The notes beneath the pieces were generated by a model. It saw nothing but the letters and a program-made list of their open reading frames with translations. It did no database searches and was not told the DNA's origin. Source: Candidatus Micrarchaeota archaeon (GTDB lineage Archaea; Micrarchaeota; Micrarchaeia; Anstonellales; Bilamarchaeaceae). From it: a stretch of 55,620 bases of DNA. This document shows, in pieces, positions 14,517-55,283 of the stretch; position 1 is the first letter of the stretch, and the number at the start of each line of letters is the position of its first letter. The translations under genes and the position numbers were made by a program. The stretch is from positions 1 to 55,620 of the forward strand of contig JAHJBM010000011.1 in assembly GCA_018813505.1 (NCBI GenBank), written 5' to 3'.

Positions 14517-14520
14517 TATA

Positions 14521-14931: not shown

Positions 14932-15043
14932 AGAGAGAAATAACAAAGGGAATAGTTTAAAAATGGAGGTTTGATACGATCAATAGTAACCACATCAGTG
15001 TCAACACACATATTTTAATGGTTGTGGTCGATATTATCTCTTC

Positions 15044-15703: not shown

Positions 15704-15793
15704 AAATGATCAATATCATCATTTTTTACATTATTCTTGCTTGGGGTAGAGTGTCAAAAGGTATTTTAATATGTATACTTAAATATCATCGTA

Positions 15794-17275: not shown

Positions 17276-17291
17276 AATTAGAAATAAAAAA

Positions 17292-18545: not shown

Positions 18546-18723
18546 TCAAATCACCAAAACCAAAATAAGTTAATGATATTAATCATAATGTATAAATGTT
18601 AATATTAAAAAGATAGTCATTAGGAAAACAGTGTCCATTATCCACAGGTCCTTTGCATAATTACATACCAATTTAAATATATCTACTTTCATATATATCT
18701 AAAATTGTTATATCCCAAAATTG

Positions 18724-19083: not shown

Positions 19084-19087
19084 TATT

Positions 19088-19774
19088 ATGCCCGAAAATT
19101 ATACTAAAGACATTCTGAAGCTTGAAAATATCACCAAGTCATATCAAATGGGTGATGACGTAGAGGTTACTGCATTATCAAATCTGAATCTTACGATAAA
19201 ACAAAACGATTTTATATCAATTCTTGGTCCAAGTGGTTCAGGTAAATCAACCCTTTTGCATATGATGGGTCTGCTGGATACTCCAACAAGCGGGAAGAGG
19301 TATGTTGATGAGATAGACACCACAACTATGAGTGAGGATGATATGGCACGCATTCGAGGGAAAAAGATCGGTTTTGTGTTCCAAACATTTAATCTTATAT
19401 CCTCTTTGACAGCATTGGAAAATGTTGAACTTCCGATGCTTCTTTGTGATCAAAATTCAGATCAAAGGAAAGAAAAAGCAATGGAGCTCATGGGTCTGGT
19501 AGGGCTCTCAGATCGTCTTGATCATCTCCCTGGTCAGCTTTCAGGTGGCCAAAGGCAAAGGGTTGCTATTGCACGTGCGCTTGCCAATGATCCGGAAATT
19601 ATACTTGCCGATGAGCCGACAGGTAATTTAGATTCAAAAACTGGTTCTGAGGTTCTTGGAATATTCAGATCACTACATAAGAAAGGAAAGACTATCATTG
19701 TGATTACGCATGATCAAAGCATTGCAAAGATGACTGATAGGATTGTGAGGTTAAAAGATGGAAAAATTATTTGA
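19088..19774 (+). CDS. ABC transporter ATP-binding protein (MacB/LolD-type)
   Basis: Walker [10 protein letters not shown], signature [15 protein letters not shown], Walker [13 protein letters not shown]-loop ITHD. ATG at 19088 is preferred to TTG at 19070. Confidence 0.92.
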
Positions 19775-19790
19775 TATTAATGTGGGTGTT

Positions 19791-21305: not shown

Positions 21306-21367
21306 ATCTCAAGACGGCCATTAAGATGAACGAATTGGTACGTCTTGTTGGTCAGGAGATGAAATAA

Positions 21368-22579
21368 ATGAACATTGAGCAGATGTTTAATTTCAGCCTT
21401 AGATTCCTTATGCACCAAAGGTTGCGTTCATTCCTTACTGTGCTAGGCATAATAGTTGGCATTTCATCAATTGTCCTTCTGGTCGGATTGGTGCAGGGTC
21501 TTAAACAGGATATACTTGTGCAACTTGAGGACTTTGGTCCAAGAACCATAATCATCTCCCCGGTAAATATGCAGGGTGGTGGGTCAATAGGTCCTGGTTC
21601 TTCTTTTACCCCGACTTCTGGCAAGCTTTTTGAAAAAGATTATGAACGAATAAAGCGAATGCCAGAGATCAAGACTATCACAAAAGTTATCACTGGTCAG
21701 ATCACAGTCGAATTCAAGGATCAATCAATAAGCAGTCAGGTCTATGGTATAGAAGCGGATGTTTTCATGGATACGCTTTCTGTTGAAGTGGACTCTGGTC
21801 GCTTTCTGAGTGCAAGTGATGGTGCTGTTGCCGTACTTGGATCAAAAGTTGCAGAGAGTTTTGATGAGGATGTTCATACTCAGTCCAATATAAATCTCGG
21901 GGGAAAGACATTCAAGATTATCGGAATCCTCAAATCAACTGGAAATTCGTTTGCACCTATTGATAATACAATTATGATCCCGTTTGATCAAGCAAAGGAT
22001 CTTTTTTCCGAAAGGCTGCTTGATGATGAGATATCTGCAATACGTTTGACTCTTGACGAGGGTACTGATGTTGATGCCGCTGCCATTGAAGTTGAGGATA
22101 TAATGATGGCATCTCATCGCGTTACTGAGGATGAAAAAGATTTTGGGGTTATAAGTCCCACGTTCATAAATCAGCAGTTCAGCAGCATACTTGACCTTCT
22201 TGCAGTTTTTCTTGGGGCAATAGCTTCAATATCACTGATTGTCGGTGGCATAGGTATATCGAACACCATGTTCATGAGTGTAATGGAACGCAGGACAGAA
22301 ATCGGTACTATGAAAGCCGTTGGCGCGACCCAAAATCAGATCAGGAATATCTTTCTGGTTGAAAGCAGTATTATCGGCCTTTTGGGTGGATTGCTAGGTC
22401 TCTTGCTGGCTGCAGTTCTTGGTTTTATTATATCTCTTTTGGGAGTAACATTCATTTTTGATATTTACGTAACAATCGGCGCGCTTTTGTTTTCAGTACT
22501 TGTAGGCATTATATCAGGTACATTTCCGGCAACAGAAGCTGCAAAAGTTGATCCGATAGTTGCATTGAGGTATGAGTGA
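21368..22579 (+). CDS. ABC transporter permease, FtsX/MacB-type
   Basis: N-terminal TM, an extracytoplasmic MacB_PCD-like domain of about 220 aa, and three C-terminal TMs with the GGIGISNTM...ERRTEIGTMKAVGAT motif. Confidence 0.88.
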   Translation: MNIEQMFNFSLRFLMHQRLRSFLTVLGIIVGISSIVLLVGLVQGLKQDILVQLEDFGPRTIIISPVNMQGGGSIGPGSSFTPTSGKLFEKDYERIKRMPEIKTITKVITGQITVEFKDQSISSQVYGIEADVFMDTLSVEVDSGRFLSASDGAVAVLGSKVAESFDEDVHTQSNINLGGKTFKIIGILKSTGNSFAPIDNTIMIPFDQAKDLFSERLLDDEISAIRLTLDEGTDVDAAAIEVEDIMMASHRVTEDEKDFGVISPTFINQQFSSILDLLAVFLGAIASISLIVGGIGISNTMFMSVMERRTEIGTMKAVGATQNQIRNIFLVESSIIGLLGGLLGLLLAAVLGFIISLLGVTFIFDIYVTIGALLFSVLVGIISGTFPATEAAKVDPIVALRYE

Positions 22580-23802
22580 TGAAATCCAATGACATCCTGA
22601 TGTATGCGGTGAAGAACATTACGAAAAGACAGTTACGCAGCTGGCTTACTATCATCGGTATGGTCATTGGCGTAATCGCAATTGTTGTCATACTGTCAAT
22701 AAGTGAGGGATTTAACCAAGATATACTTACTCAACTTAGTGCTTTTGGCGCGGATCAGATCATAGTTATGCCTGTTTCATCTTTGGAAGGTTCTTTTGGT
22801 GGTTCTGGTGTGGGGAGTGCACCTACGAGCGGAAAAATATTGGAAGAGGATGTGGATGATATTCGGAGCATTCCGGGAGTGAAAACCGTTGTCCGCACTC
22901 TTTACGGGAGGGCAAGTCTTTCATTCAAGGGAAAAGACATAACTGCGACGATATATCCGACGGATGTTGCAATGTTTGATATGTATGAAGGATATATGGA
23001 ACTGGAATCCGGTCGCATGTATAAGGAAGGCGAGCGCAATGTTGCTGTGTTTGCTGCTGACGCATCAACCGAGTTGTTTGGCAAGGATAAAGTGAGTGTG
23101 GGCAGCGTGGTTCAATTAAACGAAAAGAATTATCGTGTTGTGGGTGTCCTGAAAAAAATAGGCACCAGCCTTTCACAGACTGATGATAAGGCGATCTATG
23201 TACCATTTGAAGATGGTAAGGATCTTTTCAAAGGGCAGTTCCTGGATGATGAAATTGGATATGCAATGGTGCAGATCAATGAAGGTTTTGAAGCAAACCA
23301 GATCAAGGATGCAATAGAGCAAAAACTAATCGCAAATCATCATGTGCGGGAAGATGAAAAGGATTTCTCGGTAATCACATCAGATCAGATAATGGAAATG
23401 GTCAGTAGCGTGCTTTTGACTTCCCAGATCGTGCTTGGTGCCATAACCCTGATCTCTTCTGTTGTCGGGGCAATAGGTATTTCAAATACGATGTTCATGA
23501 ACGTTCTCGAGCGCGTTAAGGAAATAGGTATTCTGAAATCTGTTGGCGCAACAAGAAAGGATATCCTGTCACTATTCTTGACCGAAAGTGCAATAATCGG
23601 GCTTATCGGTGGTTCAATCGGCCTGATGCTTGGTTATGGTCTTCTTGAACTTCTTGTGAGCATTTTTGATGTGCCTGCGTTGCTTACTGTCAATATAATA
23701 GCATTTGTTTTCCTGTTTTCGGTTGGCACTGGTCTTGTTGCCGGTTTCCTTCCTGCATACAGGGCCGCAAAACTTGATCCTGTTGAAGCTCTGAGATTGT
23801 GA
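22579..23802 (+). CDS. ABC transporter permease, FtsX/MacB-type (paralogue)
   Basis: Same architecture as the preceding permease (GAIGISNTM...ERVKEIGILKSVGAT). The ATG overlaps the preceding TGA (TGATG). Confidence 0.88.
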   Translation: MKSNDILMYAVKNITKRQLRSWLTIIGMVIGVIAIVVILSISEGFNQDILTQLSAFGADQIIVMPVSSLEGSFGGSGVGSAPTSGKILEEDVDDIRSIPGVKTVVRTLYGRASLSFKGKDITATIYPTDVAMFDMYEGYMELESGRMYKEGERNVAVFAADASTELFGKDKVSVGSVVQLNEKNYRVVGVLKKIGTSLSQTDDKAIYVPFEDGKDLFKGQFLDDEIGYAMVQINEGFEANQIKDAIEQKLIANHHVREDEKDFSVITSDQIMEMVSSVLLTSQIVLGAITLISSVVGAIGISNTMFMNVLERVKEIGILKSVGATRKDILSLFLTESAIIGLIGGSIGLMLGYGLLELLVSIFDVPALLTVNIIAFVFLFSVGTGLVAGFLPAYRAAKLDPVEALRL

Positions 23803-25441: not shown

Positions 25442-28400
25442 ATGGTGCAATCCTCGGTGAACCACATGAGATTCATAAGACCTATCTGTTATCTGGTTGT
25501 TTTGTTACTAATATTATTTACATTTCCAGTTGCACATGCTCAGGATGCTGTATATGACGGCGTACTTGGTGCTCCTAAATGTTCTGGCAGTAGTTCGCCA
25601 TGTATTGCTGCTTCTGCATTACTTATATCTAGAGATAGTATGGGGGGTACGCAAGAACCAAACCAACCAAACACTCTGGATGGGTGTACTGATGGTGGTA
25701 CTGGGAATTATGGTTCTGAGGAATCAGTGGAAAATATAACTATTACTGATCTTGATACTTCTAATTTTGCAGGTGGGGATAATGTAAGGGTGACTGTGGG
25801 TTACCATGCTTTTGAATCTTCTGGGGTTGGTGATTATGTCTCTGTGTGGTATACTAATTCTACCTCTTCCATAACTTGGCAATTTATCGGTACGTTTGCT
25901 CTTTCAGATGGTAGTTATGCTACTCATGATTTTGACTTTGTTTTGGATGATGTTGTTGGAGAGCACGCCGTGAGAGCACAAATAAGGTATAACGGGGCTG
26001 ATAGTTCATGTTTACTTGGGGCATATGACGACAATGATGATCTTGTATTCCAGGTGGATGCAGGAGAAGTTATACCAGATACAAGAATAAATATCACTGG
26101 TTGTACTGAAATTTCTTCGAATGGTTCATACAAACTCAATCAAATTCTTTCTGGTGCGAATATATCAGCTACACCCTACTCTGATCTTGCCTGCCTTAAG
26201 ATTACTACCTCCAATGTTGCAATAAGTTGTGAGGGGTACAATATTTCAAATAACGGAACTACTGGTACTACATTTGGTATTCTTATCAACGGTACTGTGG
26301 ATATGCAATATAACAACATAACCATTGAGAATTGTCCAAATATTTCAGTATATACATACGGTGTTTATTCTTCATTTGCAAATGTTACTCTCTCGAATTC
26401 AACTATATTCAACAATACCTATAACATGTATCTTAATGCTTCAAATACTTCTGCATCCTCATACACTTTGTATAATGCGGATCTATTCGATCTCATAATA
26501 AATAATTCTGGAGGATCAGATCAAATAGTAAATATCAGTAGCATGATATTTGATAATTCTGCCGGAGGGCTCGTAGACTACACAACCATTTCCCTGAATG
26601 ATACTGTGTCTTCAGGTTCAGCATATTCTTTGAATTGGTCAGCCATTCCATTCACTCTACCAACAAACTACAATTCGTTTGAAAACAAATATTTGAATTT
26701 ATCTACTATTTCAGGCACAGTTTCCATAGAACAAATATTATGGCATTGGACGAATGCAGAAACTATAGGATATACAGAATCGCAACTTCAACTTTATGGT
26801 TATAGTGCATCAATATGGGATCAGCTTAATGATAGTCCAGATACCACTGAACATACATTAGGTTTAACTGATTTGGTTCCAGGTACTGTTTACGGTATCC
26901 TGGAATCTCCGACTCCATCCGGTTGTCAGCTCATAGATGCTCCTGGAATATACACTCTAAATATCGATGCCACTGGAGCTCCAACTGATTATGACATATT
27001 TACTGCTAGTGCATGTATTGTAATTGATAGTTCTGATGTTGAACTTAATTGTGATGGTCATAGTATAACTGGTGATGATACTGGTACTTATCAGACAAAA
27101 GTTGGAATATTCGCTGGGGATTTAGCATCATTGCAAAACATTACCATAAGAAATTGCCCTAACATATCATCTTATACTGTAGGTTTGTATACTTATTCAA
27201 TCAATGAAAGTTCATTTAGCAATATAACTATCTACAATACCACAGGTATAGTTACTTATGGTGCCTATCTTTCCGTATTTTCATACAGCGATGTTAGTAA
27301 TCTAACTGTCTATAACACAACTGGAAACGGAATAGATATTTACGGATCAAACGTTACTTTTTCTGATACTTTAGTGTATGATTCTGATGCTTATGGTATC
27401 TATGTCAATGGGTTTGCATCTAATCATACCTTTAGTAATGCCACTGTTCATAGTTCGGTTGCAGGTATACACACTGCATCATATCTGACAAACATTAGTG
27501 TTGCGCACTTATATAACAACACTGTTGATTTGGAATTATATGGTGGTACTGCAGATGTAATTATTTACCTTGATAATGTTGTATTTGATTCTGCATCTGG
27601 AACTTATGTTAATTACACTAACCTATCTATGTCAGATACTCTCCCAGAAGATATGATGTATGGTGGCGAGAGATACACAATAACCCACACGACTAATTCA
27701 TCTACACTTCCAACTGATTATTCGAGTTTTGCGCAGAAATTCATAAATATCACAAATACTTCGAGACCTGTTTCTATTGATTCCATAAGTTGGACTTGGT
27801 TGGAATCTGAACTTACTGGCTACACTGAAGCCGATTTTGAACTTTGGAAATACGATGCTTCTGGTTGGACTTTGCTAAATGACACTCCAGATACAACTAA
27901 CAATATAATTACCCTTTCTGCTTTGGTACCTTCAGGTGAATATGCTATTCTTCTGAACGACACTGCCTCAGATAGCACCTATCCAACAATATCATTAGAA
28001 TACCCAGAAAACACAACCTACAGTACAAATGAAAGCTTACCCTTGAATTATACTGTAGCAGATGAAACTGCAATTGATTCATGTTGGTATTCTCTTGATG
28101 ATGGAGCTTCAGTTTCATTAGCTGGTTGTACTAACACAACCTTCAATGTTGTTGCAGGTGATGGATGGCATAACATAACTGTCTATGTCAATGATTCAGC
28201 AAACAACACAAATTCAACAATTCAATATTTCTCAATAGATAGCACCTATCCAACAATATCATTAGAATACCCAGAAAACACAACCTACAGTACAAATTCT
28301 ATAGCATTACAATATCTCGTATCAGACAGCAATTTAGATTCTTGTTGGTATAATCTTAACGGAGAATCAAACACAACTTTGGCAGGTTGTGGAAATACAA

Positions 28401-29515
28401 CACTGACATTAGCAAATGGTGGCTATAGTCTAACTATTTATGCGAACGACAGTGCAAACAATACTAATTCATCATCGATTCACTTTACTGTGAATTATTC
28501 ACCAACCGTGGATGGTCAAATTGAAACATCTGATGAATCATCTTCAAAGCCAGAGGCATCATTAAGCTGGGAAAATATTTGTCCAGATAATGAATTAGAA
28601 GTCACTATAAAAAGAGGTTCTGCTATTTCAGGTGCAACAATAAAACTTATTTTGGTGGATCCATATGCTGGCATCATAGATACAAAACTAACTGACGGTA
28701 CTGGAAAAACATTATTCGCATTAGAACGATCAGGGACCTATAGATTAATTGTATCACATTCGAGTTATACGTTTGATAATCCATATGAATTTGATTATGC
28801 GATGTGCCGGGAGTGCATTGTTGATTCAGAATGTGATGCTGGCTTTGAATGTGTTGAGGGTGCATGCAGTGGGACACTAATTCCTGATACTGTTGAATGT
28901 ATTTTGGATTCAGATTGTCTTTCTACTGAAACCTGTACTAATTCAGTATGTTTACCTGTTCAACTGGGCCAATGCGGTTATATTGCAAATCACAGCTGGT
29001 ATGATTATGAATGTTGCACAAACTCGCAATGCAATGACGGGTATAAGTGCGTTGGTCACACTTGCATTCCATTAGAAATGGAGAATATGACAGTAAAAAT
29101 CTCATTTCCGACAGTACTGGAGCTTAATACTTCTCTTGAACAAATACTACCTGCAGGAACTGAAAACATCACTGTCAGAATATGGATCGATTCAGAAATA
29201 TGTAGTGAATGTGTCGTTGGAATACTGACTCTCAATGGCCGAGAATTCTCGGGAATTACTGATACTGATGGTTTCATTTCATTTCATTTTGCTGGTGATG
29301 GAATTTACAAATTCATATTGGTGGATACTGAAGGTGGATCTACGCGGGAATCATTCTTGAACATCTCAGTAGAATCAATACCATTGGTTAATCCTCCAAC
29401 CTTAGAAGATGAGCCAAAGACCTGGATTACGATATCCTCATATCTTGGCCTAGGTTTTATCCTTATCATTCTGATTATACTCTTGATCTATTGGAAGAAT
29501 AAGAAGAAAAAATAA
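25442..29515 (+). CDS. Giant secreted surface glycoprotein: duplicated right-handed beta-helix (PbH1/NosD-like) modules, two Ig-like domains, Cys-rich modules, C-terminal TM anchor
   Basis: Signal peptide MRFIRPICYLVVLLLILFTFPVAHA (the start may be 25466). There are two large paralogous modules (NITIENCPNISVYTYGVY / NITIRNCPNISSYTVGLY). N-x-S/T sequon density is very high. Three C-x-D-S-x-C...C modules are present. The tail is LGFILIILIILLIYWKNKKKK. Confidence 0.7.
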   Translation: MVQSSVNHMRFIRPICYLVVLLLILFTFPVAHAQDAVYDGVLGAPKCSGSSSPCIAASALLISRDSMGGTQEPNQPNTLDGCTDGGTGNYGSEESVENITITDLDTSNFAGGDNVRVTVGYHAFESSGVGDYVSVWYTNSTSSITWQFIGTFALSDGSYATHDFDFVLDDVVGEHAVRAQIRYNGADSSCLLGAYDDNDDLVFQVDAGEVIPDTRINITGCTEISSNGSYKLNQILSGANISATPYSDLACLKITTSNVAISCEGYNISNNGTTGTTFGILINGTVDMQYNNITIENCPNISVYTYGVYSSFANVTLSNSTIFNNTYNMYLNASNTSASSYTLYNADLFDLIINNSGGSDQIVNISSMIFDNSAGGLVDYTTISLNDTVSSGSAYSLNWSAIPFTLPTNYNSFENKYLNLSTISGTVSIEQILWHWTNAETIGYTESQLQLYGYSASIWDQLNDSPDTTEHTLGLTDLVPGTVYGILESPTPSGCQLIDAPGIYTLNIDATGAPTDYDIFTASACIVIDSSDVELNCDGHSITGDDTGTYQTKVGIFAGDLASLQNITIRNCPNISSYTVGLYTYSINESSFSNITIYNTTGIVTYGAYLSVFSYSDVSNLTVYNTTGNGIDIYGSNVTFSDTLVYDSDAYGIYVNGFASNHTFSNATVHSSVAGIHTASYLTNISVAHLYNNTVDLELYGGTADVIIYLDNVVFDSASGTYVNYTNLSMSDTLPEDMMYGGERYTITHTTNSSTLPTDYSSFAQKFINITNTSRPVSIDSISWTWLESELTGYTEADFELWKYDASGWTLLNDTPDTTNNIITLSALVPSGEYAILLNDTASDSTYPTISLEYPENTTYSTNESLPLNYTVADETAIDSCWYSLDDGASVSLAGCTNTTFNVVAGDGWHNITVYVNDSANNTNSTIQYFSIDSTYPTISLEYPENTTYSTNSIALQYLVSDSNLDSCWYNLNGESNTTLAGCGNTTLTLANGGYSLTIYANDSANNTNSSSIHFTVNYSPTVDGQIETSDESSSKPEASLSWENICPDNELEVTIKRGSAISGATIKLILVDPYAGIIDTKLTDGTGKTLFALERSGTYRLIVSHSSYTFDNPYEFDYAMCRECIVDSECDAGFECVEGACSGTLIPDTVECILDSDCLSTETCTNSVCLPVQLGQCGYIANHSWYDYECCTNSQCNDGYKCVGHTCIPLEMENMTVKISFPTVLELNTSLEQILPAGTENITVRIWIDSEICSECVVGILTLNGREFSGITDTDGFISFHFAGDGIYKFILVDTEGGSTRESFLNISVESIPLVNPPTLEDEPKTWITISSYLGLGFILIILIILLIYWKNKKKK
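27971..28297. repeat. Intragenic tandem domain duplication (267-nt period) with a 60-nt perfectly identical core
   Basis: GATAGCACCTATCCAACAATATCATTAGAATACCCAGAAAACACAACCTACAGTACAAAT occurs at 27971-28030 and again at 28238-28297 (protein DSTYPTISLEYPENTTYSTN twice). The remainder of the two 89-aa domains has diverged. Confidence 0.9.
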
Positions 29516-46084: not shown

Positions 46085-46603
46085 ATGCGTAGGGGGATCG
46101 CATGTTTGTGTCTCGGACTGGTTTTGGGGTTTGCGTTTTGTTATCTTATTCTTAATTTTATCTCTACCCCATCAATTGAACCTGTTTTTTCTCCTGACAG
46201 TGGCAATAAGATAATCTCTTTGATAGATTCCGCACAATCCTCAATAGATATCGAAATGTATGTATTTACCTCGCGTGATGTGGTTGAAGCATTATGGCGT
46301 GCAAAGAGCAGAGGTGTCAAAACAAGAATAATAATAGAGCGCAATACCATGGGTGGTGAAAACAGTGCCATACACAATGAACTTGCTGCCAAGGGGTTCA
46401 ATATAAGATATGCAAGCACACAATACAAATTAACTCATGCAAAAATCATGATAATAGACGGCAAATTCGTGTTAGTTGGTTCGCACAATTTCAGCAATTC
46501 CGCACTCTATGAAAATCGTGAGGCATCTGTGATAATCTCAGATGACATAATAATCAGACAATTCTTAGACGTCTTTGAAACAGATTGGCAAATTGCAAAC
46601 TAA
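46085..46603 (+). CDS. Secreted or membrane-anchored phospholipase D-family nuclease (Nuc-like, single HKD)
   Basis: N-terminal hydrophobic signal or anchor. The HKD motif is HAKIMIIDGKFVLVGSHNFS (H-x-K-x4-D-x6-G-S-x-N). The 172-aa size matches Nuc-type endonucleases. Confidence 0.8.
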   Translation: MRRGIACLCLGLVLGFAFCYLILNFISTPSIEPVFSPDSGNKIISLIDSAQSSIDIEMYVFTSRDVVEALWRAKSRGVKTRIIIERNTMGGENSAIHNELAAKGFNIRYASTQYKLTHAKIMIIDGKFVLVGSHNFSNSALYENREASVIISDDIIIRQFLDVFETDWQIAN

Positions 46604-46624: not shown

Positions 46625-47629
46625 TCAGTCCATTCGGAGCACATATTTTCCGTATAATTTTGCAAATATCTTGTATTTCCCACGTTCGATCTTCACAATA
46701 TATCCTTTTTCGAGAAGTCTTTTTGTGAGTGCGGTTATCTGGCCTATGGGTTTTTTGTTTATTACAGCTATCTCAGATACTCTCATGCCTTCCGGGTTCT
46801 TTGCAAGGATTTTCATTATTTTTCTTTCTGCATCTGGTGTCTTTTGATAAATTTCACCAAACCATTCTCTTGAAAACATGTTCATTATATGCGGCAGATA
46901 AGCGAGATAATGTCCTTTTGTCAATATCTTTTCATCATCCCTTATTTTATCATAAATATGTCTACACACACCTCTTATTATTCGTGGATTTCCATCACTG
47001 TCATTCAATATTACATTCACGAATTCTTCACCTGGTTTCAGGGATTTTTCACTAAGTGTTTTTGAAAGAAATTCCTTGAAATCATGTTCGTTAAATCCTC
47101 TGAGTCGCACGTTGTTTGCGTATTCTGGTACTGGTTTAAAATCAGCTGTGGCACCAATAACAAATCCTATTTTTTTATTCTTCAACTTGCCTGAACTCAC
47201 CAAAAGTTCTATCTTTTTGACAATTTCATCCGGATTCTTTGAAACATCTATATCATCTATAAAAATCACTGTTCCGAATTCTCCCAGATACCCTATCTTC
47301 TCTACAAATTCGTTGAAACTTCTTGCATCAAGTCTGATTTGATGCAGCATGCCAAATTCTTTGCCCATCCTTTCCAAAATCTTTTTATTGTCCTCTCCTT
47401 TTTGTATTTTCACATACAATGCAACTATCCTGTTCTTCTCTGCAAGATGGGCAAACATATGCATGAGCCTTGTTTTTCCTACTCCTGGAACTCCACTAAC
47501 CAGTATTATCCTTGGTTGCCCTGAAGATATATTATTTAGGAAGGCATCAAATATTCTAAGTTCCTCTTTTCTTCCATATGTCTTTTCAATATCATCGTCA
47601 GATACTATGAACGGATTTGGTCCTATCAT
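46625..47629 (-). CDS. AAA+ ATPase (archaeal ATPase / Orc1-Cdc6-related) with C-terminal winged helix
   Basis: Walker A GVPGVGKT, Walker B VIFIDDID, GNPR sensor-like segment, C-terminal wHTH MRVSEIAVINKKPIGQITALTKRLLEKGYIV. A GGAGG Shine-Dalgarno element lies 6-10 nt upstream of the ATG at 47629. Confidence 0.75.
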   Translation of the reverse strand: MIGPNPFIVSDDDIEKTYGRKEELRIFDAFLNNISSGQPRIILVSGVPGVGKTRLMHMFAHLAEKNRIVALYVKIQKGEDNKKILERMGKEFGMLHQIRLDARSFNEFVEKIGYLGEFGTVIFIDDIDVSKNPDEIVKKIELLVSSGKLKNKKIGFVIGATADFKPVPEYANNVRLRGFNEHDFKEFLSKTLSEKSLKPGEEFVNVILNDSDGNPRIIRGVCRHIYDKIRDDEKILTKGHYLAYLPHIMNMFSREWFGEIYQKTPDAERKIMKILAKNPEGMRVSEIAVINKKPIGQITALTKRLLEKGYIVKIERGKYKIFAKLYGKYVLRMD

Positions 47630-47729: not shown

Positions 47730-47737
47730 TTTATAAA
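47730..47737 (+). promoter_or_regulatory. Candidate TATA box (TTTATAAA) for the giant gene; spacing implies a leaderless or near-leaderless mRNA
   Basis: The centre lies about 27 nt upstream of the ATG at 47761. No Shine-Dalgarno-like sequence lies in between. Confidence 0.4.
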
Positions 47738-47760: not shown

Positions 47761-50700
47761 ATGTCGGCTATAAAGTGGTTGTCTGGATTGTTTATACTAT
47801 TCATTGTCGCACTGTCCAGTGCTTACAATTATGGTGATCCGGGATTACAGGATAGCCAAGTGGTAATAGTGCCGAACGAAGATGGTACTATTCTCGAGAT
47901 AAGTGTGTTGACATTTGCATCTGGTCATACTGATACCGGAACGACAATCAGCCAGGAGATGCGTGCTATTATCGAAAGTTGCCGGGATTCACCGAATTTC
48001 AGGCAATGTATATACAGTGAAGGAAACAGTTTTACTGCAGGTACTGATTTTAATCTTGAAATGCGGTCTGTCCAAGATGCAAGAATTACTGTTACTTATT
48101 ACAATGCCCTGACTGGTTCAGATACAGATGTACCTGAATGTACTGGTCTGGTTACCAACACAGAAGGAATCGCATATACCCCTTCAGAAACAGGTGTGCC
48201 AGATGAGATTCCATATTACACTACAACCTGTGATATTTCAGAAATTGTAGAAGGACAAAGGACAACTACCATAATGGTAATCTATAGTCCTGATCTTGAA
48301 GATGGTATTTCTGCCAGTACTGCACCATACACATATACAAATGCTCATGTCACTGCTTCAAGTGCAATTACCCGCCAAATCAATGATCTTATCTTAGGTT
48401 TGTCATCAGCTCAGGGAACTGACATTCCGATTCCGCTAGCATCACCATTACCATGTGTTGGCATATTTCTTATCTTGGGATTATTATTATCATCACTATA
48501 TTTTGCAGGAAAATCGCCAATTTCATTACTTGATATCGCTGCCCCTCGTTTGCCAACACCCAAGGGTGTTGCTGCCGGTGGCCAGATTCTTACTCCATTC
48601 GGTTATGGTGAATTAGGGCGAACTACAAATGCAAAACTCAAAGCTTCGGTTGCAGCCCTTGAACTCATATCCAGACGGTTAAGAGAAAACCGGCTTGGTG
48701 GCGATATGGCTACAAACAGGCTCATGGGCAGGATTGATTCAAGAGGCGGTACAAATGAGCAGAGGCAGGTGGCAAGATCTATCGTAACTGCTGGTCGGGC
48801 TCTTGGAATAAATGCGCATGAATTGAACGGACTTGCAGATCTCCCATCAAACTATAGGGAAGCACATTACCAACAGATAGCAAACATATTTGAACGTCTC
48901 AGAAATGGTGAGCTTGGGGGAGCAGGGAGACACCTTGCTACTACTACCCAGGACGCACTCCATGCCTTCAGGGTAAATAAAACACTATCAGTTCTTGGTG
49001 GTCATCCTGATATGGAAACACAAAGCAAGGCACTCACATGGGTTACAAAGAAAATGGACGTTGCTTTTGGTTCCAATCGGTATGCCGTTATTGGTCCAAC
49101 AATTGCTGCAACAAGAGGTTCAATAGTCAGGTCAAGCAGACTGACTGGTAGGCTTGCAAAAGCAATATTTACTGAAGCTCCAAGTCTTGTTAGGGGTGCC
49201 ACAAAAACAACCATGGAAATGATCGGTGGTTCTGATGCATTAAGAAGGCTTGAAGCAAAGGGCAAAACTTCAAGATCTGCAGGATGGTTGTTTAATCAGC
49301 TTACGAAACATCCTAGCAACATTGAAATCGGTCACATGTTTCCGATTGTAGATAAAATGGGGTATATGTATGATTCAATGCGCAAGGAAGCACTTAGGGA
49401 CTCAATGAGGTATGTGCTCAGGCAATTTTACAGATCAAAAGGCGTAAACTTCAGTATAACTGAGGAAGAACTTTCACAAATGGGGCACAAAGATATTAAT
49501 ATCCTTCAGAAATCAGGTTATCTTACTGCAATTCAACACATGAGTGCAGATGAACGGGCATCATTTCATAATGCAGAAAAAGAATTCATGACCATCCTTG
49601 GAAACAAAGATCTGAGTTCATATGAAAAGCTCCAGAAACTTATTGACCTAGCAAGAACGCATACAAGTAACACTATACATATAGATTCAAGTCTTCAGAT
49701 GTTCACCGACAAAATCAACAATATTCATCAAAGTACAGAGCCTGACTATGTAAAGATGATCCAGTTGCAGGAACAATTTGAAAAGCAAAATGCAGTACGA
49801 GCAGCTGGTGATACTGGTGGTGTGCTAAGGGATGATTTATACGTCTGCCATGTGGGCGGAGGTACACTCAGGCATGAAAAAATCTGGGAAACAATGGTCC
49901 TTCGTACCATGATATGGGATGCAGAAAACGGCTATATGAAATCGATAGGCCAAAGCGAGCACCTTGATGAACAGGCTGGTGTAAAAGAAGCACTTCTATC
50001 AGCAAGGCTTAATGTTGCGAACAGGCTTGCAACCCTTGATCCAACTACTGGAATGGATAAATTACCAGAACATATGCGAAATATGTCAGATCTTGAAGCG
50101 GTAAGAGATAGAAATAAATCTGACATGATGCAGTTGTTCTCAAAGGAAGGGCTTGAACTGTTCGAGCAGACTACCAATAAGAAAATGGGCCAGGCATCTA
50201 TACAAGACATAGTATTATTCATGTATGGGGCCAACATGCCAAAGTCTGGTCATACTGATCCAAAAACCGGAAAAATGGTCTACTGGGGCTGCGATCAGGA
50301 ACTTACACTTAAAAAATCTGAAGTCCGTGCAGATGTCAAAAGGCACTGGATTACCAAGCTGGACGACCGTGAGAACTTTGCATTAGGTCAATGGACAGAA
50401 TCAAAATTCACAAGAAGCTATGTTCCTGCGTTCAAGGCTTCCATAGAAGCACAACTCAAGAATATGCCCGGTTATAACACGTGGAGTGTTGAAGAACACC
50501 AAACCCATGCAAAGCAATTGTGGGTTTCAGATCTGCTGATAAAAGACATGGAACAGAGATTCAACTCACACTTTGGTCAGAATACTTACGGGACTACGCA
50601 CGAATCAATGCGCTTCTATGGAGGCATAGCGGTAGGTTTCCTTGAAAAAGCGCTTGAAGACAAGCTTCCTGCTGATCACGCCACGTTGGAGTTCCTGAAA

Positions 50701-52548
50701 AATATAGACATGAACAATGTAAACCATCTAAGGGAACTAGGGACTCTTCTAAGTGCACACAGACAGGACTTTGAGAAGATAATCCATGATCCTGTTACTT
50801 ACGAACAAATGGCAACAGGGAAAAAGCCAATGGTAATGCTTCATGAAGGTGGTTTTGCATACTATCATAAAGGCATGGCACTTAGTGACATGGATCGTCT
50901 CGTGAATGCAGAAGTTGCACTAAAAGATAATAATGGGGTGTCACGGGTATTCATAGCAGAAGAAGTTTCAATCAATCTTAATGACAAATTAATACAGGAG
51001 TTTTACAAGCTAAAAAATTCAAGGAGTGCGGGTAATCCTGAGGAATGGTCAAATCTTATTGAGAATGCTCGGGCTTGGGCAAGTGAGGGGAGATACAATT
51101 ACGAGCGTGAAAAGCAATTCGCTGCACTTGTCTGGGAATATTCAAATGCAACAAATGATTTCCATAGCTTCTACAACAAGACCAAGGTATTTGTTGATTC
51201 AAGAAGAGAAGTTACCCCTGCAGCTCCAATGATGCTGCGATTCTTTGGAATTGAAGGTAGCACAGCTGCAGATGCATGGAAGCATGCAAAGAAATATGGG
51301 TTCAATGTACTTGACTACATCACAAAGGTGTCACTGCTAACTGGCGGGCCTGTTCATGATGCGTCATACGATATCACGCCAGTATCAGAGCAATTCAGAA
51401 GACATTCGATGTACATGGCATCAAACATAATGGCTAATGTTGATATGAAAGATATGACTGCAGAAGAACGTGCAGCATTAAGGAATGCAGCAATGCAACA
51501 TGCCGCACTTCATCAGGTTTGGGATTATGCGATTGACAGGCACCCTGGCAGAACTTCTGCAGGTTATGGTACTCATGCTTCATGGGCATCAGGTTTCCAC
51601 TTTGGTCCTGCACAGAACTTTTCAGTAAAAGACAACCTGGGTTCTTACATGTCAAAAGGTGAGTACCTAAACTTCATGGTCATGTACGGTTTCTCACTGG
51701 ATCTTGCCAGTAAGATGCTTGCCCCATATACAAACATAATCCGCGGCGTTCAGATGTCTATGCAGGGTTATTCAAACAGGTGGGGTATTACAGAGAATCC
51801 ATTGAAAATGTACGATTACACTACTCCAAGAATGCAAGAAGCAATGCAGGCAGCCAATCCATTTTCTTTCAGATGGTTTGAAGGAAAGACCTTTGAGAGG
51901 ATTGCAAAGCTCAATGTATTCGGTGGCAGTCTTGAACATCATCAACTTGCAGGTCCTGATTTCTTCCTTGGTCTAAGGCAGGCACCTCAGGATTTATTCC
52001 TTACAAGAAAAGGTGTCTATGCAGTTCTCAGAACCGGTGAGGCAAATCCTGGACTTACTCACTACGACTATCGACACACTCTCAGGCTTGATCAGGCAAT
52101 GGGCGAATATCTTATGAGAAACCGGGATGTTGCCTATATGTATGATGAAGAGGTAAAACATTCGGCATTCACTAACACTGTAAGGCGTACGGTTGCTGCA
52201 GAAGCACTTGGTATAAGAAGGCGCCAGGAACTTAACAATTTCGGGGCTCTTCAAAACCCACTCTATGGTTGGGCAAATCCAATTGCTTTCCTATGGCATC
52301 TTCCACCTCCTGGTGTTCCTGATGGTCTTGCGCCGAGGGATCTTGTTACAAGATGGGTAGGTATATCCAAGCGCGGTCATGATCCGCAAGGCGGTTTCTT
52401 GAACCAATTCAAGCGCGCAGCATCCTCATTTGGCAATACTGCGAAATCATTTAGCCGTCCTGATCTGACAAGCAGGCAGGTTCACTGTAACTGTGGTCGT
52501 ACGGGTATACGTGGTACTAGGTGTCAAAACTGCGGTATATGTCTATGA
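47761..52548 (+). CDS. Orphan giant protein (1595 aa): signal peptide, Cys-containing ectodomain of about 200 aa, one TM, cytoplasmic region of about 1340 aa, C-terminal zinc ribbon
   Basis: Signal MSAIKWLSGLFILFIVALSSA. TM PCVGIFLILGLLLSSLYFAG (about nt 48440-48510). The remainder is largely helical by composition, with no P-loop, HExxH or other catalytic motif recognised. The C-terminus is CNCGRTGIRGTRCQNCGICL (52486-52545). Confidence 0.75.
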   Translation: MSAIKWLSGLFILFIVALSSAYNYGDPGLQDSQVVIVPNEDGTILEISVLTFASGHTDTGTTISQEMRAIIESCRDSPNFRQCIYSEGNSFTAGTDFNLEMRSVQDARITVTYYNALTGSDTDVPECTGLVTNTEGIAYTPSETGVPDEIPYYTTTCDISEIVEGQRTTTIMVIYSPDLEDGISASTAPYTYTNAHVTASSAITRQINDLILGLSSAQGTDIPIPLASPLPCVGIFLILGLLLSSLYFAGKSPISLLDIAAPRLPTPKGVAAGGQILTPFGYGELGRTTNAKLKASVAALELISRRLRENRLGGDMATNRLMGRIDSRGGTNEQRQVARSIVTAGRALGINAHELNGLADLPSNYREAHYQQIANIFERLRNGELGGAGRHLATTTQDALHAFRVNKTLSVLGGHPDMETQSKALTWVTKKMDVAFGSNRYAVIGPTIAATRGSIVRSSRLTGRLAKAIFTEAPSLVRGATKTTMEMIGGSDALRRLEAKGKTSRSAGWLFNQLTKHPSNIEIGHMFPIVDKMGYMYDSMRKEALRDSMRYVLRQFYRSKGVNFSITEEELSQMGHKDINILQKSGYLTAIQHMSADERASFHNAEKEFMTILGNKDLSSYEKLQKLIDLARTHTSNTIHIDSSLQMFTDKINNIHQSTEPDYVKMIQLQEQFEKQNAVRAAGDTGGVLRDDLYVCHVGGGTLRHEKIWETMVLRTMIWDAENGYMKSIGQSEHLDEQAGVKEALLSARLNVANRLATLDPTTGMDKLPEHMRNMSDLEAVRDRNKSDMMQLFSKEGLELFEQTTNKKMGQASIQDIVLFMYGANMPKSGHTDPKTGKMVYWGCDQELTLKKSEVRADVKRHWITKLDDRENFALGQWTESKFTRSYVPAFKASIEAQLKNMPGYNTWSVEEHQTHAKQLWVSDLLIKDMEQRFNSHFGQNTYGTTHESMRFYGGIAVGFLEKALEDKLPADHATLEFLKNIDMNNVNHLRELGTLLSAHRQDFEKIIHDPVTYEQMATGKKPMVMLHEGGFAYYHKGMALSDMDRLVNAEVALKDNNGVSRVFIAEEVSINLNDKLIQEFYKLKNSRSAGNPEEWSNLIENARAWASEGRYNYEREKQFAALVWEYSNATNDFHSFYNKTKVFVDSRREVTPAAPMMLRFFGIEGSTAADAWKHAKKYGFNVLDYITKVSLLTGGPVHDASYDITPVSEQFRRHSMYMASNIMANVDMKDMTAEERAALRNAAMQHAALHQVWDYAIDRHPGRTSAGYGTHASWASGFHFGPAQNFSVKDNLGSYMSKGEYLNFMVMYGFSLDLASKMLAPYTNIIRGVQMSMQGYSNRWGITENPLKMYDYTTPRMQEAMQAANPFSFRWFEGKTFERIAKLNVFGGSLEHHQLAGPDFFLGLRQAPQDLFLTRKGVYAVLRTGEANPGLTHYDYRHTLRLDQAMGEYLMRNRDVAYMYDEEVKHSAFTNTVRRTVAAEALGIRRRQELNNFGALQNPLYGWANPIAFLWHLPPPGVPDGLAPRDLVTRWVGISKRGHDPQGGFLNQFKRAASSFGNTAKSFSRPDLTSRQVHCNCGRTGIRGTRCQNCGICL

Positions 52549-52646
52549 AGAGTAGTCCGGCTATTGGTGTTTAGACTCTCGAACCAAAAAAATTCGGTTC
52601 TGGGAGTTGTCATTTCTTTTTATTTATTTCCATTCATTTTCTATGC

Positions 52647-55283
52647 ATGCAATTTGCTGGAAAAACTTTCTTTGTGCCACTAATAGGCATTATCGGAATA
52701 CTCATCTTTTTTTACGGTTGTTTGGGTAGCGTTGGATCTGACCAATTCGGAGAAAATTACATTGCTGGGCTGGAACGTGTTTCTGCTCCTAGTCCTGAAG
52801 CCTGTCCTATAGGTAATTGCTGGTGTATGGTCTGTGAGAATACCCAATTCGAATATCTTTTTGGCCCTGCAAGAAATCTTATTGGTGGCAGCTGCCATTT
52901 TAACACAGAATGTACGCCTGAAGTATTCACTGATCTTGCAAGTGATGATACTACTCCCACATTAAGTATACGCCAATTCATGTTAGGCCAGGGGGCATCA
53001 TTTGCTGATTTTGCAGAAGCAAATCCATACTGTGCTGATAAACTTACTATGGCTGTTCAGTGGCTCACAGGTGATGAAAATACTGAATATCCTGTTCCTG
53101 ATGCACCCCGTACAATGTGCTTTTTAAGCAAGGATGTGCTTCCAGTTTTTGTTCTTTATAGCAATGGTGAGAATATAGATGCTGATCGTGCAGAAGATAT
53201 TGGAGAAGTACTTGGCACCCAAGGCGATGATTTTTTTGCCGGTCGATTATCAACCGGTCCAGTCGGTCCTGTGATTGTTGTTACTGAAATAGATTTCGAT
53301 AGGGAAGATATTCCTTTGATTGCAGAACAGGTTCGCGCAGTAAATCGCGGTTGTAGAAATGACCGGGCGAGTGATGAAATAAATTGTATGATCGCAGTAG
53401 CACCAAAGATGGGTGATACAGAAACACTTGATATGATAATGGAAGAAGTCGGTGATGAGGTCGATCTTATCGCATTTGGTGTTAATGGTAGGGACACTGA
53501 ATCATGCGATGGTGCGCGCATTGTTTATGATGTAGAAGAATATGCAGCACATGCACTTTATCACTGGAATAAACCAACCATAATTCCGTATATCATGTTT
53601 GACAGCAGCGGTACAAATGCAGATGGTTCATGTACCTGGACAGAGAATCGTATGATAGCAGCATACTCATCATTTTTTCCTACAAATATAATATCACTTC
53701 AACAAAGGGGCGTCATTGGTATAGCTCCATATTCGTTCAATTCAAACAATAATCGTTTGTCCAATCCGCTTGAGTGCACCAGCTGCGGTCTTGGTGCAAA
53801 TGAACAAAGAACTCAATCGTGGTATAGTTGGTGTCAACGATTTAATACAATTACAGAACTATCTCCAACTGGAGATTCAATCAGACAATCAGGTTCAATT
53901 CCAATAGCATTTTCTGATGAGGCTGGCGGGAGCTGCAATTCTAACAATGGTCAGCTCGCCTATCTTGTAAGAGAGATAAGTTTCTCTGATTCATTATCCA
54001 CACGGGACATAATGAGTCCAAACATGCCAGAGCTTGCTGATCCCACAGATAATATCTTCACATGCGATGCATGCGTTGTTTATAATCATCCGGAAAATCC
54101 CGATGCGCCAATCACTCCTGCATTTAGCGGCATTCATGCTGCTGACCTTGGTGAGCCTGTAGGGCAATGTGATATTTATCCAGAAATAGATCGTTGGGCA
54201 AGTCAGCGTAATCTTGATCCAATGTTAGTAAGGGCATTCATAATCAGTGAAAGCGGTTTTAGTTTGCCTGAAGGTTTTGATGTGTGCGAAGTCGCAGAGG
54301 TACACGAAGTTGGTACTGGTGGTTTGAGGACTTCGAGCGGTGCTGACGAATGTTATGAAAAAGGCTACAATTTCATTACTGATCCAACTGGCGAATGTGA
54401 TGAGTTGCCTTCTGCACCAACAGTTGCGCCTGGTGCAGATACTGAAATGCGTTATTGTGGTCTTGGCATGATGCAGATACTTGAACCACCGATAGAATTC
54501 TGGCCAGCAACATATCGTCAGGATGGGGTTGACGGGGTATATGTGGATTATTATACTGATGTGGTTTCTAGAGGCATGAATCCAAACCTTGAATTCGCAC
54601 AGTCATGCAATCCAGTGAATTTCAATCCATTCAATATCGATGATGCACTTTGCGTTGGTACTGCAAAAATAGAAGCATCATTGAATTATGCAAGGCAATG
54701 GATAAGCACCCATAGATCTGAACTTGGCTGGGGAGCAGAACAATATGAAAAAGATAATGTGCTTGCAGCATATATCGCAGGACATGATTATGTAGGTTTC
54801 TGGCGTGCGCATAGTAGCACTAATCGCGATTGTATAAGACGAGGTATTCAAAGTCATGCTATAAATAATGGTGATTGTTGGGTAGCAAATTTCAATGAGC
54901 GCAGTACCTCTCTAGATGCCTCAACAGTGTGTGTGAGGGATGATGATGGTAATCTACCGGCACAATGCAGCGGAGTAGGCGAACTTGATCGCGATAATTG
55001 TTATGGTTATACTGATTTTGTTGAATATGTGCGAGCTTGCGAGATAATCTACCTTCCAAGGGAAGCAGATCCTGGTGCAAACAAGCTTAGTATTTACTAT
55101 TGGCTGATAAATCATTGTGATAATAGTTTCTGTCCTGAAGGAAGGAGGATGCTATCCACATTTTGTGAACCTGATGAAAACGGATACGTAAATCCACAAT
55201 TCTGTGATACTACAACCGGGTTTCCGTTATATCCAGACAGTCATAATCCATATATGCCAGATTTGGCCCCGTCCGGGCCATAA
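52647..55283 (+). CDS. Secreted or lipobox-anchored Cys-rich protein with C-terminal lytic transglycosylase (SLT, goose-lysozyme-like) domain
   Basis: N-terminal TM/signal ending FFYGC. The SLT signature is in the correct order: LDPMLVRAFIISESGF (catalytic E at 54249-54251), YCGLGMMQI, NPFNIDDALCVGTAKIEASL, VLAAYIAGHDYV. The N-terminal roughly 500 aa are unassigned. Confidence 0.75.
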   Translation: MQFAGKTFFVPLIGIIGILIFFYGCLGSVGSDQFGENYIAGLERVSAPSPEACPIGNCWCMVCENTQFEYLFGPARNLIGGSCHFNTECTPEVFTDLASDDTTPTLSIRQFMLGQGASFADFAEANPYCADKLTMAVQWLTGDENTEYPVPDAPRTMCFLSKDVLPVFVLYSNGENIDADRAEDIGEVLGTQGDDFFAGRLSTGPVGPVIVVTEIDFDREDIPLIAEQVRAVNRGCRNDRASDEINCMIAVAPKMGDTETLDMIMEEVGDEVDLIAFGVNGRDTESCDGARIVYDVEEYAAHALYHWNKPTIIPYIMFDSSGTNADGSCTWTENRMIAAYSSFFPTNIISLQQRGVIGIAPYSFNSNNNRLSNPLECTSCGLGANEQRTQSWYSWCQRFNTITELSPTGDSIRQSGSIPIAFSDEAGGSCNSNNGQLAYLVREISFSDSLSTRDIMSPNMPELADPTDNIFTCDACVVYNHPENPDAPITPAFSGIHAADLGEPVGQCDIYPEIDRWASQRNLDPMLVRAFIISESGFSLPEGFDVCEVAEVHEVGTGGLRTSSGADECYEKGYNFITDPTGECDELPSAPTVAPGADTEMRYCGLGMMQILEPPIEFWPATYRQDGVDGVYVDYYTDVVSRGMNPNLEFAQSCNPVNFNPFNIDDALCVGTAKIEASLNYARQWISTHRSELGWGAEQYEKDNVLAAYIAGHDYVGFWRAHSSTNRDCIRRGIQSHAINNGDCWVANFNERSTSLDASTVCVRDDDGNLPAQCSGVGELDRDNCYGYTDFVEYVRACEIIYLPREADPGANKLSIYYWLINHCDNSFCPEGRRMLSTFCEPDENGYVNPQFCDTTTGFPLYPDSHNPYMPDLAPSGP

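Follow-up and report, generated by a model that had tools for sequence, protein, structure and literature searches.

Among the known systems closest to the one reported here are lytic transglycosylases of the SLT type. In Escherichia coli, two of these enzymes, MltC and EmtA, are lipoproteins. In DPANN archaea, large extracellular proteins with murein transglycosylase domains have been described from Pacearchaeota and Woesearchaeota (fam00969; Castelle et al. 2021, PMC8204110), three Micrarchaeota genomes were reported to encode a lytic murein transglycosylase (Chen et al. 2018, PMC5864196), and these SLT-type proteins were proposed to act on the cell walls of partner organisms (PMC8204110, PMC5864196). 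A cultured Micrarchaeon possesses a pseudoperiplasm of 20-25 nm below its surface layer (S-layer) (bioRxiv 10.1101/2021.04.28.441871). How DPANN archaea, among them the tiny symbiotic Micrarchaeota, attach to, open and feed on their partners is a central open question with few known molecular parts. Here we analysed a stretch of 55,620 nucleotides (nt) from Candidatus Micrarchaeota archaeon (contig JAHJBM010000011.1; hereafter the window), in which the gene of a giant membrane protein (Gene 1, G1) is followed by that of a Cys-rich protein with two glycanase-like domains (Gene 2, G2). The best reading of this pair, as yet unproven, is an envelope glycan-cutting module. Positions refer to the whole stretch, residue numbers to G1 and G2 of the window, and homologous loci are designated by L and a number. 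The two genes are:

47761..52548, + strand: G1, an open reading frame (ORF) of 1595 amino acids (aa), predicted type I membrane protein of giant size whose family has so far been found only in Micrarchaeota
52647..55283, + strand: G2, an ORF of 878 aa, Cys-rich two-domain glycanase-like protein with a predicted lipobox anchor

An earlier reading made from the letters of the window alone (the sequence-only reading) had described two co-oriented genes 98 nt apart, in agreement with the ORF coordinates, and had taken G1 for an orphan, which is contradicted by full-length homologues in at least 51 species genomes. Twenty-five full-length G1 homologues from independent assemblies were recovered at 35-51% identity and 96-100% coverage, together with 71 G2 homologues at 28-46% identity, the G2 family spanning ~800-950 aa. 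Because collinear full-length homologues come from many independent assemblies, the possibility that G1 is an assembly chimera was ruled out. When 1.84 billion representative proteins were searched with a profile built on G1 residues 396-1595, 122 representative clusters (68 at E<=1e-30) were recovered, nearly all of them giants of 1500-2000 aa or fragments of such giants, plus a few stand-alone proteins of ~130 aa related to one subdomain. A homologue search with an alignment of the distant G1 clade (A5) returned only the query. By scanning one genome per GTDB species with exact motif patterns from the G1 transmembrane/juxtamembrane region, 51 species loci were obtained, all but three titled Micrarchaeota, Micrarchaeia, Bilamarchaeum/Bilamarchaeaceae or 'ainarchaeum', and the other three '(uncultured) archaeon'. 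Wherever the source of a G1 or G2 homologue named an organism, it was likewise Micrarchaeota, Micrarchaeia, Bilamarchaeum or 'ainarchaeum'. To judge from these searches, both families have so far been found only in Micrarchaeota (DPANN).

Adjacency of the homologues had been set beforehand as a test of the pair. Hidden Markov models (HMMs) of G1 and G2 were run against six-frame ORFs of the 51 species loci, five of which could not be evaluated since the contig ends at or inside G1. G2 was the next gene downstream of G1, on the same strand, in 44 of the 46 evaluable loci, and the test held in the distant loci inspected as well. The pair is intact in L061, L062, L064 and L065, where G1 is only 21-27% identical to the window protein; the gene immediately upstream of each of the three inspected G2 homologues that are most distant (L008, L009 and L069) encodes a giant of ~1600-1850 aa; and in L013, found via a distant G1 homologue, a G2 homologue follows directly. 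Spacers between the two genes elsewhere measure 68, 52, 33 and 32 nt, shrinking to 4 nt in L013 and to a 4-nt overlap in L069. This adjacency appears to be strong evidence of coupling, though not proof, and G1 and G2 probably form an operon. Two loci, L032 and L033, carry a 1.4-kb insertion (~12700-14050) between the genes, which in L033, the one inspected, is of low complexity and rich in Pro, Ala and Ser; L033 also displays a tandem duplication of G2 (14070-19251).

The features of G2 that bear on its function are as follows:

52647..52721, + strand: signal peptide ending in a lipobox (...F-Y-G-C25), from the conservation of Cys25
52944..53996, + strand: (beta/alpha)8 glycoside-hydrolase-type barrel, residues ~100-450, from the AlphaFold2 (AF2) model and Foldseek
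54159..54866, + strand: divergent SLT/GH23-like domain of putative lysozyme fold, residues ~505-740, from motifs and hhalign
54867..55280, + strand: Cys-rich C-terminal tail, residues ~741-878, from conserved Cys and a predicted local distance difference test score (pLDDT) of ~90

G2 contains a single N-terminal hydrophobic segment and 36 Cys. At the end of its signal peptide we found a lipobox (general pattern [LVI][ASTVI][GAS]-C). In the alignment, Cys25 occurs in 70/70 sequences and Gly24 in 67, position -2 is usually A, S or F, and positions -3 to -6 are hydrophobic. Because the signal peptide ends in this conserved lipobox Cys, G2 is predicted to be a lipid-anchored lipoprotein. The sequence-only reading had called it secreted; its export and Cys richness stand, whereas the lipobox predicts lipid anchoring and not merely secretion. 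The AF2 model of G2, built from a 72-sequence alignment, reached a mean pLDDT of 88.0 and a predicted template modelling score of 0.89, with pLDDT ~95 over residues 90-400, and the tail holds conserved Cys at 762, 774, 785, 798, 824 and 829.

The larger of the two domains, a triosephosphate isomerase (TIM) barrel over residues ~100-450, had not been noticed before. Foldseek comparison of the whole G2 model with the PDB yielded 39 matches at E<=1e-3, and the best 50 rows (E up to 1.3e-3) were all (beta/alpha)8 glycoside hydrolases, including endo-mannanase 4qp0 (4.2e-5), beta-1,3-xylanase 2ddx, PslG 5bx9 and GH53 galactanases, with target-normalised TM-scores of 0.4-0.54 over ~300-370 columns. 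This (beta/alpha)8 barrel is the fold of glycoside hydrolase clan GH-A, and the matches of G2 in the Foldseek viral library were mainly of the same TIM-barrel class. No Pfam, NCBIfam or PDB sequence match assigned the barrel to a CAZy or Pfam glycoside hydrolase family. In clan GH-A, the acid/base and nucleophile Glu lie at the ends of strands 4 and 7. In G2, E214 is present in 72/72 sequences after the predicted strand 209-212 (fourth), and position 319, after the predicted strand 311-313 (seventh), is D in 66 and E in 6, the strand numbering being read from the DSSP order, not from a superposition.

The second domain carries the motifs of SLT-type enzymes. Motif I consists of E535 (72/72) and S536 (65/72), and motif II (G607-x-M-Q610) of G607 (72/72), M609 (62/72) and Q610 (70/72); a Cys-containing insertion of ~50-60 residues separates them, and both align to the E. 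coli motifs. Further downstream are N660 (68/72), P661 (72/72), G671 (71/72), T672 (64/72), Y715 (66/72) and G717 (71/72). The hhalign template was an alignment of E. coli Slt70 (C-domain), EmtA and MltC; with it, F-N-P-F-N...C-x-G-T-x-K of G2 aligned with the SLT segment dPe-NI-GT-YL, and A-A-Y-I-A...Y715-x-G717 resembles AYNAG, although hhalign did not align the two. The unspliced C-terminal half of G2 scored P=1.8e-4 (Prob 49%), and P=1e-6 (Prob 91%; 43 columns at default stringency) after removal of the insertion 546-595, compared with P=0.09 for the reversed template and P=0.2 for the reversed query; the profile similarity to bona fide SLT domains is above chance. G2 did not match the sequence model of the SLT family (PF01464, GH23) or any NCBIfam model, and its best profile match in the PDB was the type III secretion system (T3SS) transglycosylase EtgA at E=0.71, which is not significant. 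From motifs and profiles we conclude that G2 bears a divergent, insertion-bearing GH23/SLT-type core. The 'convincing SLT signature' claimed in the sequence-only reading is backed by the conserved motifs and the profile-profile match, but the domain is silent in Pfam.

The partner G1 is organised as follows:

47761..47823, + strand: signal peptide, residues ~1-21, from the hydrophobic segment 1-22, with cleavage inferred
47824..48435, + strand: ectodomain, residues ~22-225, with four invariant Cys
48436..48630, + strand: transmembrane helix and juxtamembrane motif, residues ~226-290, the best-conserved stretch
48631..52455, + strand: predicted cytoplasmic body, residues ~291-1565, mixed alpha/beta in the AF2 model, no family match
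52486..52545, + strand: C-terminal CxC...CxxC zinc ribbon, residues 1576-1595, from invariant Cys and Pfam matches

Only two hydrophobic segments were detected in G1 (residues 1-22 and 221-252). The ectodomain Cys C74, C83, C127 and C157 are invariant in the family alignment, as are C1576, C1578, C1588 and C1591 at the C-terminus, and the body of ~1300 aa contains only 0-5 Cys, in contrast to the Cys-rich exterior. The two terminal Cys pairs with conserved spacing are those of a zinc ribbon or treble clef; six of 26 family members matched Pfam zf-tcix (best E-value 6.7e-5), one matched Zn_ribbon_3, and the motif survives in the distant G1 clade as CPxCG...CPxC. The hydrophobic segments and the Cys distribution support a topology with a signal peptide, a disulfide-bonded ectodomain, one transmembrane helix and a cytoplasmic body, and thus argue for a type I membrane protein with a small ectodomain outside and the giant body and zinc ribbon inside. 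Signal peptide, Cys-containing ectodomain, single transmembrane helix and zinc ribbon had all been read from the window before, and the cytoplasmic placement then proposed for the large part fits the Cys-poor body and the terminal ribbon.

Conservation of G1 extends over its full length (mean column identity 52%), with very few indels beyond residue ~740, and peaks at the membrane: residues 241-280 show mean column identities of 0.88-0.92, and the motif ...LPCVGxFLILGLLLSSLYFAGKSPISLLDIxxPRLPxPKGVxAGGQ... is retained in the distant clade. The near-invariance of the transmembrane helix and the next ~35 residues suggests that a partner or a processing event at the membrane has been conserved. 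SLYFAGKS at the end of the helix was considered as a Walker A motif and rejected in our own judgement, since it lies at the membrane boundary, has Pro after it and is not flanked by the strand and helix of such a motif.

The AF2 model of G1 covers residues 396-1595 at a mean pLDDT of 65. Over residues ~526-1145 the confidence is mostly good; alpha and beta elements are mixed there, no helix exceeds 37 residues, and a beta-rich subdomain lies near residues 1011-1063. Together with the scarcity of indels, this speaks against the 'very long helical' protein of the sequence-only reading. Residues ~1145-1595 fall below pLDDT 50 though they are among the best conserved, possibly because the alignment is shallow, because partners or oligomerisation are needed, or because the fold is unusual; the same region (window 51196-52545) is rich in Met, Gln and aromatic residues. 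Apart from the terminal zinc ribbon, G1 matched no family in Pfam, PHROGs, NCBIfam or PADLOC and belongs to none of the families against which it was tested. Single-sequence and profile searches of G1 against PDB sequences found nothing, and Foldseek of its model against the PDB gave nothing usable (best E=0.019, TM<=0.1, karyopherins and ABC transporters), in keeping with the earlier impression of a body without recognisable motifs. Stand-alone proteins of ~110-160 aa match HMM positions 1020-1122 and 772-828 of G1 in non-collinear order (L067 5118-5603 and 5603-5947; L068 660-1058; proteins P0179-P0216) and sit in runs of small unannotated genes, in Micrarchaeota wherever the source is identifiable. 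These separate small relatives suggest that G1 may have been assembled from modules that also exist as separate proteins.

Two elements in the non-coding DNA concern the expression of the pair:

47730..47737, + strand: TATA-box-like TTTATAAA, ~27 nt 5' of the G1 ATG, from reading of the sequence
52549..52646, + strand: T-rich G1-G2 spacer of 98 nt, holding TTTTTATTTATTT ~20-35 nt 5' of the G2 ATG

A TATA box at leaderless spacing had been proposed before G1, and the element is indeed found there. Measured against the established position of archaeal TATA boxes, its spacing fits leaderless transcription, and a TATA-like box lies at the same distance from the G1 start in five of the eight homologous loci inspected, L001, L008, L009 and L013 being among those with a similar box. 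The spacer (52549-52646) contains a 5-bp hairpin (GAACC...GGTTC) followed by TTTCTTTTTATTTATTT ~20-35 nt 5' of the G2 start, and a similar T-rich element occurs in L001 and L002. This element could act as a terminator of the oligo-T type, as a TATA box or promoter internal to the pair, or as both.

On this basis we tentatively propose, at a confidence somewhat short of probable, a vertically inherited two-gene envelope module of Micrarchaeota in which glycan is cut locally under the positioning or control of G1. G2 would be exported and, through the lipid on its lipobox Cys, anchored to the cytoplasmic membrane on its outer side, below the S-layer, where its many disulfides would stabilise it. 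It would carry two glycan-cleaving domains, the clan-GH-A-like TIM barrel with E214 and the acidic residue 319, and the goose-lysozyme/SLT-type domain with E535. The G1 ectodomain would share this compartment, with the transmembrane helix and the body of ~1300 aa lying in the membrane and inside the cell. By docking, positioning or controlling G2, G1 may direct a local cut in a cell-surface glycan polymer and link this cleavage to a cytoplasmic assembly, comparable to bacterial membrane-bound or machine-associated lytic transglycosylases that are tethered to trans-envelope assemblies. The target could be the envelope of a partner or host, for contact or feeding, or the cell's own glycan layer, for growth or division.

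Several observations weigh against such a module. Pfam returned nothing for G2 at E<=1, the SLT domain included, and the strongest SLT profile score required a hand-chosen splice of the insertion. Among the rows listed in the Foldseek comparison of the whole G2 model, none was attributable to the SLT-like domain, and the 'lysozyme' rows of the viral library (E 0.16-0.29) could be placed on neither domain; since that library returned mainly TIM barrels, it has no bearing on the SLT domain. The barrel presents Asp, not Glu, at the expected nucleophile position, as located on predicted strands only. L013 encodes a G2 homologue of 601 aa (13798-15603; hhalign E=2.9e-35) that keeps lipobox and barrel and is devoid of the E-S/GLMQ core; the pair is thus retained there without the SLT core, so that not every lineage with the pair needs transglycosylase catalysis for it. 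L042 and L063 have G1 with no G2 downstream. The order of the TFB (transcription factor B), CorA, phosphoglycerate kinase (PGK) and topoisomerase VI genes is likewise conserved in these genomes, and because neighbouring housekeeping genes are also syntenic, the adjacency of G1 and G2 is weaker evidence than it appears. Wall-less Thermoplasmatales, finally, offer no murein to cut. Cultured Micrarchaeota grow on such hosts (bioRxiv 10.1101/2021.04.28.441871); the acidophilic cultured lineages, Ca. Micrarchaeum and Ca. Mancarchaeum, may or may not carry the pair.

Two genes upstream of G1 recur with the pair:

46085..46603, + strand: phospholipase D (PLD) family (NucT/Nuc-like) protein of 172 aa with an N-terminal hydrophobic segment, Pfam PLDc_2 at 2.8e-31
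46625..47629, - strand: AAA+ ATPase of 334 aa with a C-terminal winged helix, Orc1/Cdc6-like, Pfam AAA_16 at 1.5e-12 and AAA_22

Among NCBIfam models, the PLD protein matched NucT (~5e-16) and DrmC (3.5e-17), all under the curated cut-offs, and the AAA+ protein matched TIGR02928 (1.8e-7, 30 bits against a cut-off of 181), with HTH_24 over residues 268-311. The NucT-like PLD gene lies upstream of G1 in 32 of the 51 species loci, and the AAA+ gene with its winged helix-turn-helix (wHTH) is immediately upstream of and divergent from G1 in 44 (seen across L015-L059). Both are lost in the most divergent loci that keep G1 and G2, for which reason we regard G1-G2 as the stable unit. Housekeeping genes flank the block on both sides: topoisomerase I, PGK, CorA and TFB precede it, topoisomerase VI A/B and a KH-domain protein follow, and the topoisomerase VI A gene (Top6A) lies within 8 kb in 33 of the 51 loci. 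Topoisomerase VI A/B adjoin G2 across the phylum (L015-L062), including the most distant loci; they are inverted in L025, L040 and L051, upstream in L050, and located at 15600-18201 in L013 and at 12101-14738 in L069. The locus is part of the chromosomal core, usually beside topoisomerase VI, and the GC content of the pair (0.42) is inside the range of the window.

Elsewhere in the window, at 25442-29515, lies the gene of a 1357-aa protein with a Pfam Beta_helix match, probably exposed at the cell surface. It is ~2-6 kb downstream of a cluster (~19070-23800) that encodes a PadR regulator, two MacB/FtsX-type permeases, an ABC ATPase and a protein of 515 aa with faint likeness to CARDB, and is separated from this cluster by a malic enzyme gene. 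For a 969-aa protein of the window, a look-up gave no record.

A more far-reaching version of the proposal makes G1 and G2 the membrane-spanning core of a Micrarchaeota-specific machine for cell contact, in which G2 would cut the glycan layer of the partner or of the cell itself. The G1 body would form the intracellular side of a bridge or of a pore for feeding and, with the NucT-like nuclease and the Orc-like AAA+ protein, might handle DNA or nucleotides. In this extended form we consider it rather unlikely; an apparatus for breaching or attaching to a host envelope, as put forward in the sequence-only reading, is plausible.

It is also conceivable, though unlikely, that G1 and G2 are functionally unrelated and adjacent only because gene order is generally conserved in this region. 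Topoisomerase VI A/B, the KH-domain protein, TFB, CorA and PGK are also kept nearby in many loci, L042 and L063 lack G2 after G1, and the spacer of the window may hold a separate G2 promoter. However, the link between G1 and G2 outlasts the AAA+ and PLD neighbours (L061-L065 and L008), the genes share a strand and are separated by very short spacers down to the 4-nt overlap, both families have the same narrow taxonomic range, and the tandem duplicate of G2 in L033 has stayed in place.

An equally low likelihood was given to the idea that G2 is mainly structural or glycan-binding, serving as a pseudoperiplasmic S-layer anchor or adhesin, with G1 as its membrane stalk. This would agree with the loss of the SLT core in L013 while barrel and lipobox remain, with a barrel that has no canonical second Glu, and with the very high Cys content and rigid, confidently modelled architecture of G2; a second membrane-anchored protein that tethers the S-layer has been the subject of speculation (bioRxiv 10.1101/2021.04.28.441871). 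Yet E535 and E214 are invariant and position 319 is always acidic over 72 sequences at 28-46% identity, a pattern typical of retained catalysis. G2 was also considered as the S-layer protein itself and rejected, the published Micrarchaeota S-layer protein having a Pfam S-layer domain and almost no sulfur-containing residues.

The recurrence of the PLD and AAA+/wHTH genes upstream raises the possibility of a DNA-related block, in which G1 would act with the NucT-like PLD protein, the Orc1/Cdc6-like AAA+/wHTH protein and topoisomerase VI in the uptake of DNA or nucleotides or in chromosome tethering or segregation, with G2 opening the envelope for it. NucT of Helicobacter is linked to natural transformation, and Top6A/B stay adjacent despite the inversions and in the most distant loci. 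Nevertheless, G1 displays no nucleic-acid-binding or NTPase domain besides the zinc ribbon at its end, a motif that serves in protein contacts as well, the most divergent loci that keep the pair do not have the PLD and AAA+ genes, and topoisomerase VI is a housekeeping enzyme encoded on the opposite strand; we therefore regard such a block as distinctly improbable.

Finally, a mobile-element remnant or cargo, be it a phage tape-measure protein with its lysin or a type IV secretion system (T4SS) VirB1-type hydrolase with a VirB6/TraG-like partner, has next to no chance of being correct, for although a large protein is combined here with a transglycosylase-like enzyme, the best but non-significant PDB profile match of G2 is the T3SS enzyme EtgA and an integrase/MCM/ParB element lies a few kb upstream in L007, neither G1 nor G2 has a significant PHROG, Pfam or PADLOC match, the flanks are the same housekeeping genes across species at ordinary GC, G1 has a fixed length, few indels, a mixed alpha/beta fold and no repetitive coiled coil, and the L007 element, which sister assemblies do not have, is no part of the conserved block. 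The best PHROG match of G1 or G2 (E=0.013) covered 40 residues of a family of unknown function and was not significant. Neither capsid, portal, terminase, VirB4 and VirD4 genes nor the ATPases and channel components of T4SS or conjugation systems were found in the 51 species loci or the nine annotated loci, so that the tape-measure/lysin and VirB1 analogies of the sequence-only reading fell away, while its remark that no phage or T4SS gene is nearby was borne out. A TraE match in one G1 family member (E=0.0094) was dismissed as noise, and among the PADLOC defence models, none of which matched G1 or G2, only DrmC-type models matched, and these only the PLD neighbour. The L007 element itself (1-7179), found in a strain variant next to the PLD gene on its upstream side, comprises an integrase, an MCM helicase, ParB and a DDE transposase; because the sister assemblies L004-L006 carry TFB, a kinase and CorA at this position, it was apparently inserted beside the block.

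The pair is a concrete candidate, widespread in the phylum, for the cell-surface biology of Micrarchaeota. It defines a membrane protein family of ~1600 aa with no detectable relative among characterised families or solved structures, almost invariably tied to a predicted lipid-anchored enzyme with two glycan-directed domains, one of which is normally regarded as bacterial. Because standard domain models miss them, transglycosylase-like domains are likely under-counted in Micrarchaeota. Should the pair serve the cell's own envelope, this would suggest an unrecognised glycan layer in these archaea. Lineage-specific hypothetical families are, however, common in these organisms, and any role of this one in host interaction is conjectural. 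E535, E214, D319 and the interaction of the G1 ectodomain with G2 are testable, and the profile models can be applied to cultured strains.

In comparison with known systems, G2 shares with MltC, EmtA and Slt70 the order of motifs, namely E-S at a helix end, G-L-M-Q on a strand and N-P/D-P...G-T in a helix, as well as the profile-profile similarity seen after splicing, and with the lipoproteins MltC and EmtA the lipobox anchor. Unlike these enzymes, it goes undetected by Pfam, its core is split by the Cys-containing insertion of 50-60 residues, its SLT-like domain is fused to a TIM barrel and a Cys-rich tail, and its host is an archaeon without known murein, its activity being putative. Like the SLT-type proteins reported from DPANN archaea (PMC8204110, PMC5864196), G2 is an exported DPANN protein with an SLT-type domain. 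The fam00969-type proteins are detected by standard domain models, reach 3000 aa and come from other phyla, whereas G2 is Pfam-silent, ~800-950 aa long, lipobox-anchored by prediction, equipped with an additional TIM barrel and paired with G1; the three Micrarchaeota genes of Chen et al. (PMC5864196) may or may not be G2 homologues. With clan GH-A (GH5/GH26 mannanases, GH53 galactanases and GH39 PslG), the region ~100-450 shares the fold (Foldseek 4e-5 to 1e-3) and an invariant Glu at the end of predicted strand 4, and it differs by the absence of a sequence-level family match, the Asp at the expected nucleophile position and many disulfides.

As for the pair, the genetic link of a putative glycan cutter to a large membrane protein is reminiscent of VirB1 (T4SS), EtgA (T3SS) and FlgJ, each associated with a large membrane assembly. 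Unlike those systems, the G1-G2 loci contain no ATPases, secretins or VirB6/8/10, G1 matches none of their components, and the locus belongs to the chromosomal core. A long protein followed by a muralytic-type enzyme is also the arrangement of phage tape-measure proteins and tail lysins, which are recognised by PHROG or Pfam matches, tail gene neighbours and a long repetitive helical rod; G1 has no significant PHROG match, phage neighbours or extended coiled coil, and is instead membrane-anchored with a predicted cytoplasmic body. The G2 architecture of lipobox, glycoside-hydrolase-type barrel, split SLT core and Cys-rich tail, with G1 as partner, has not been described in the literature searched. 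No known kind of system corresponds to G1 or to the two genes taken as a unit, and G2 represents known folds in a new arrangement.

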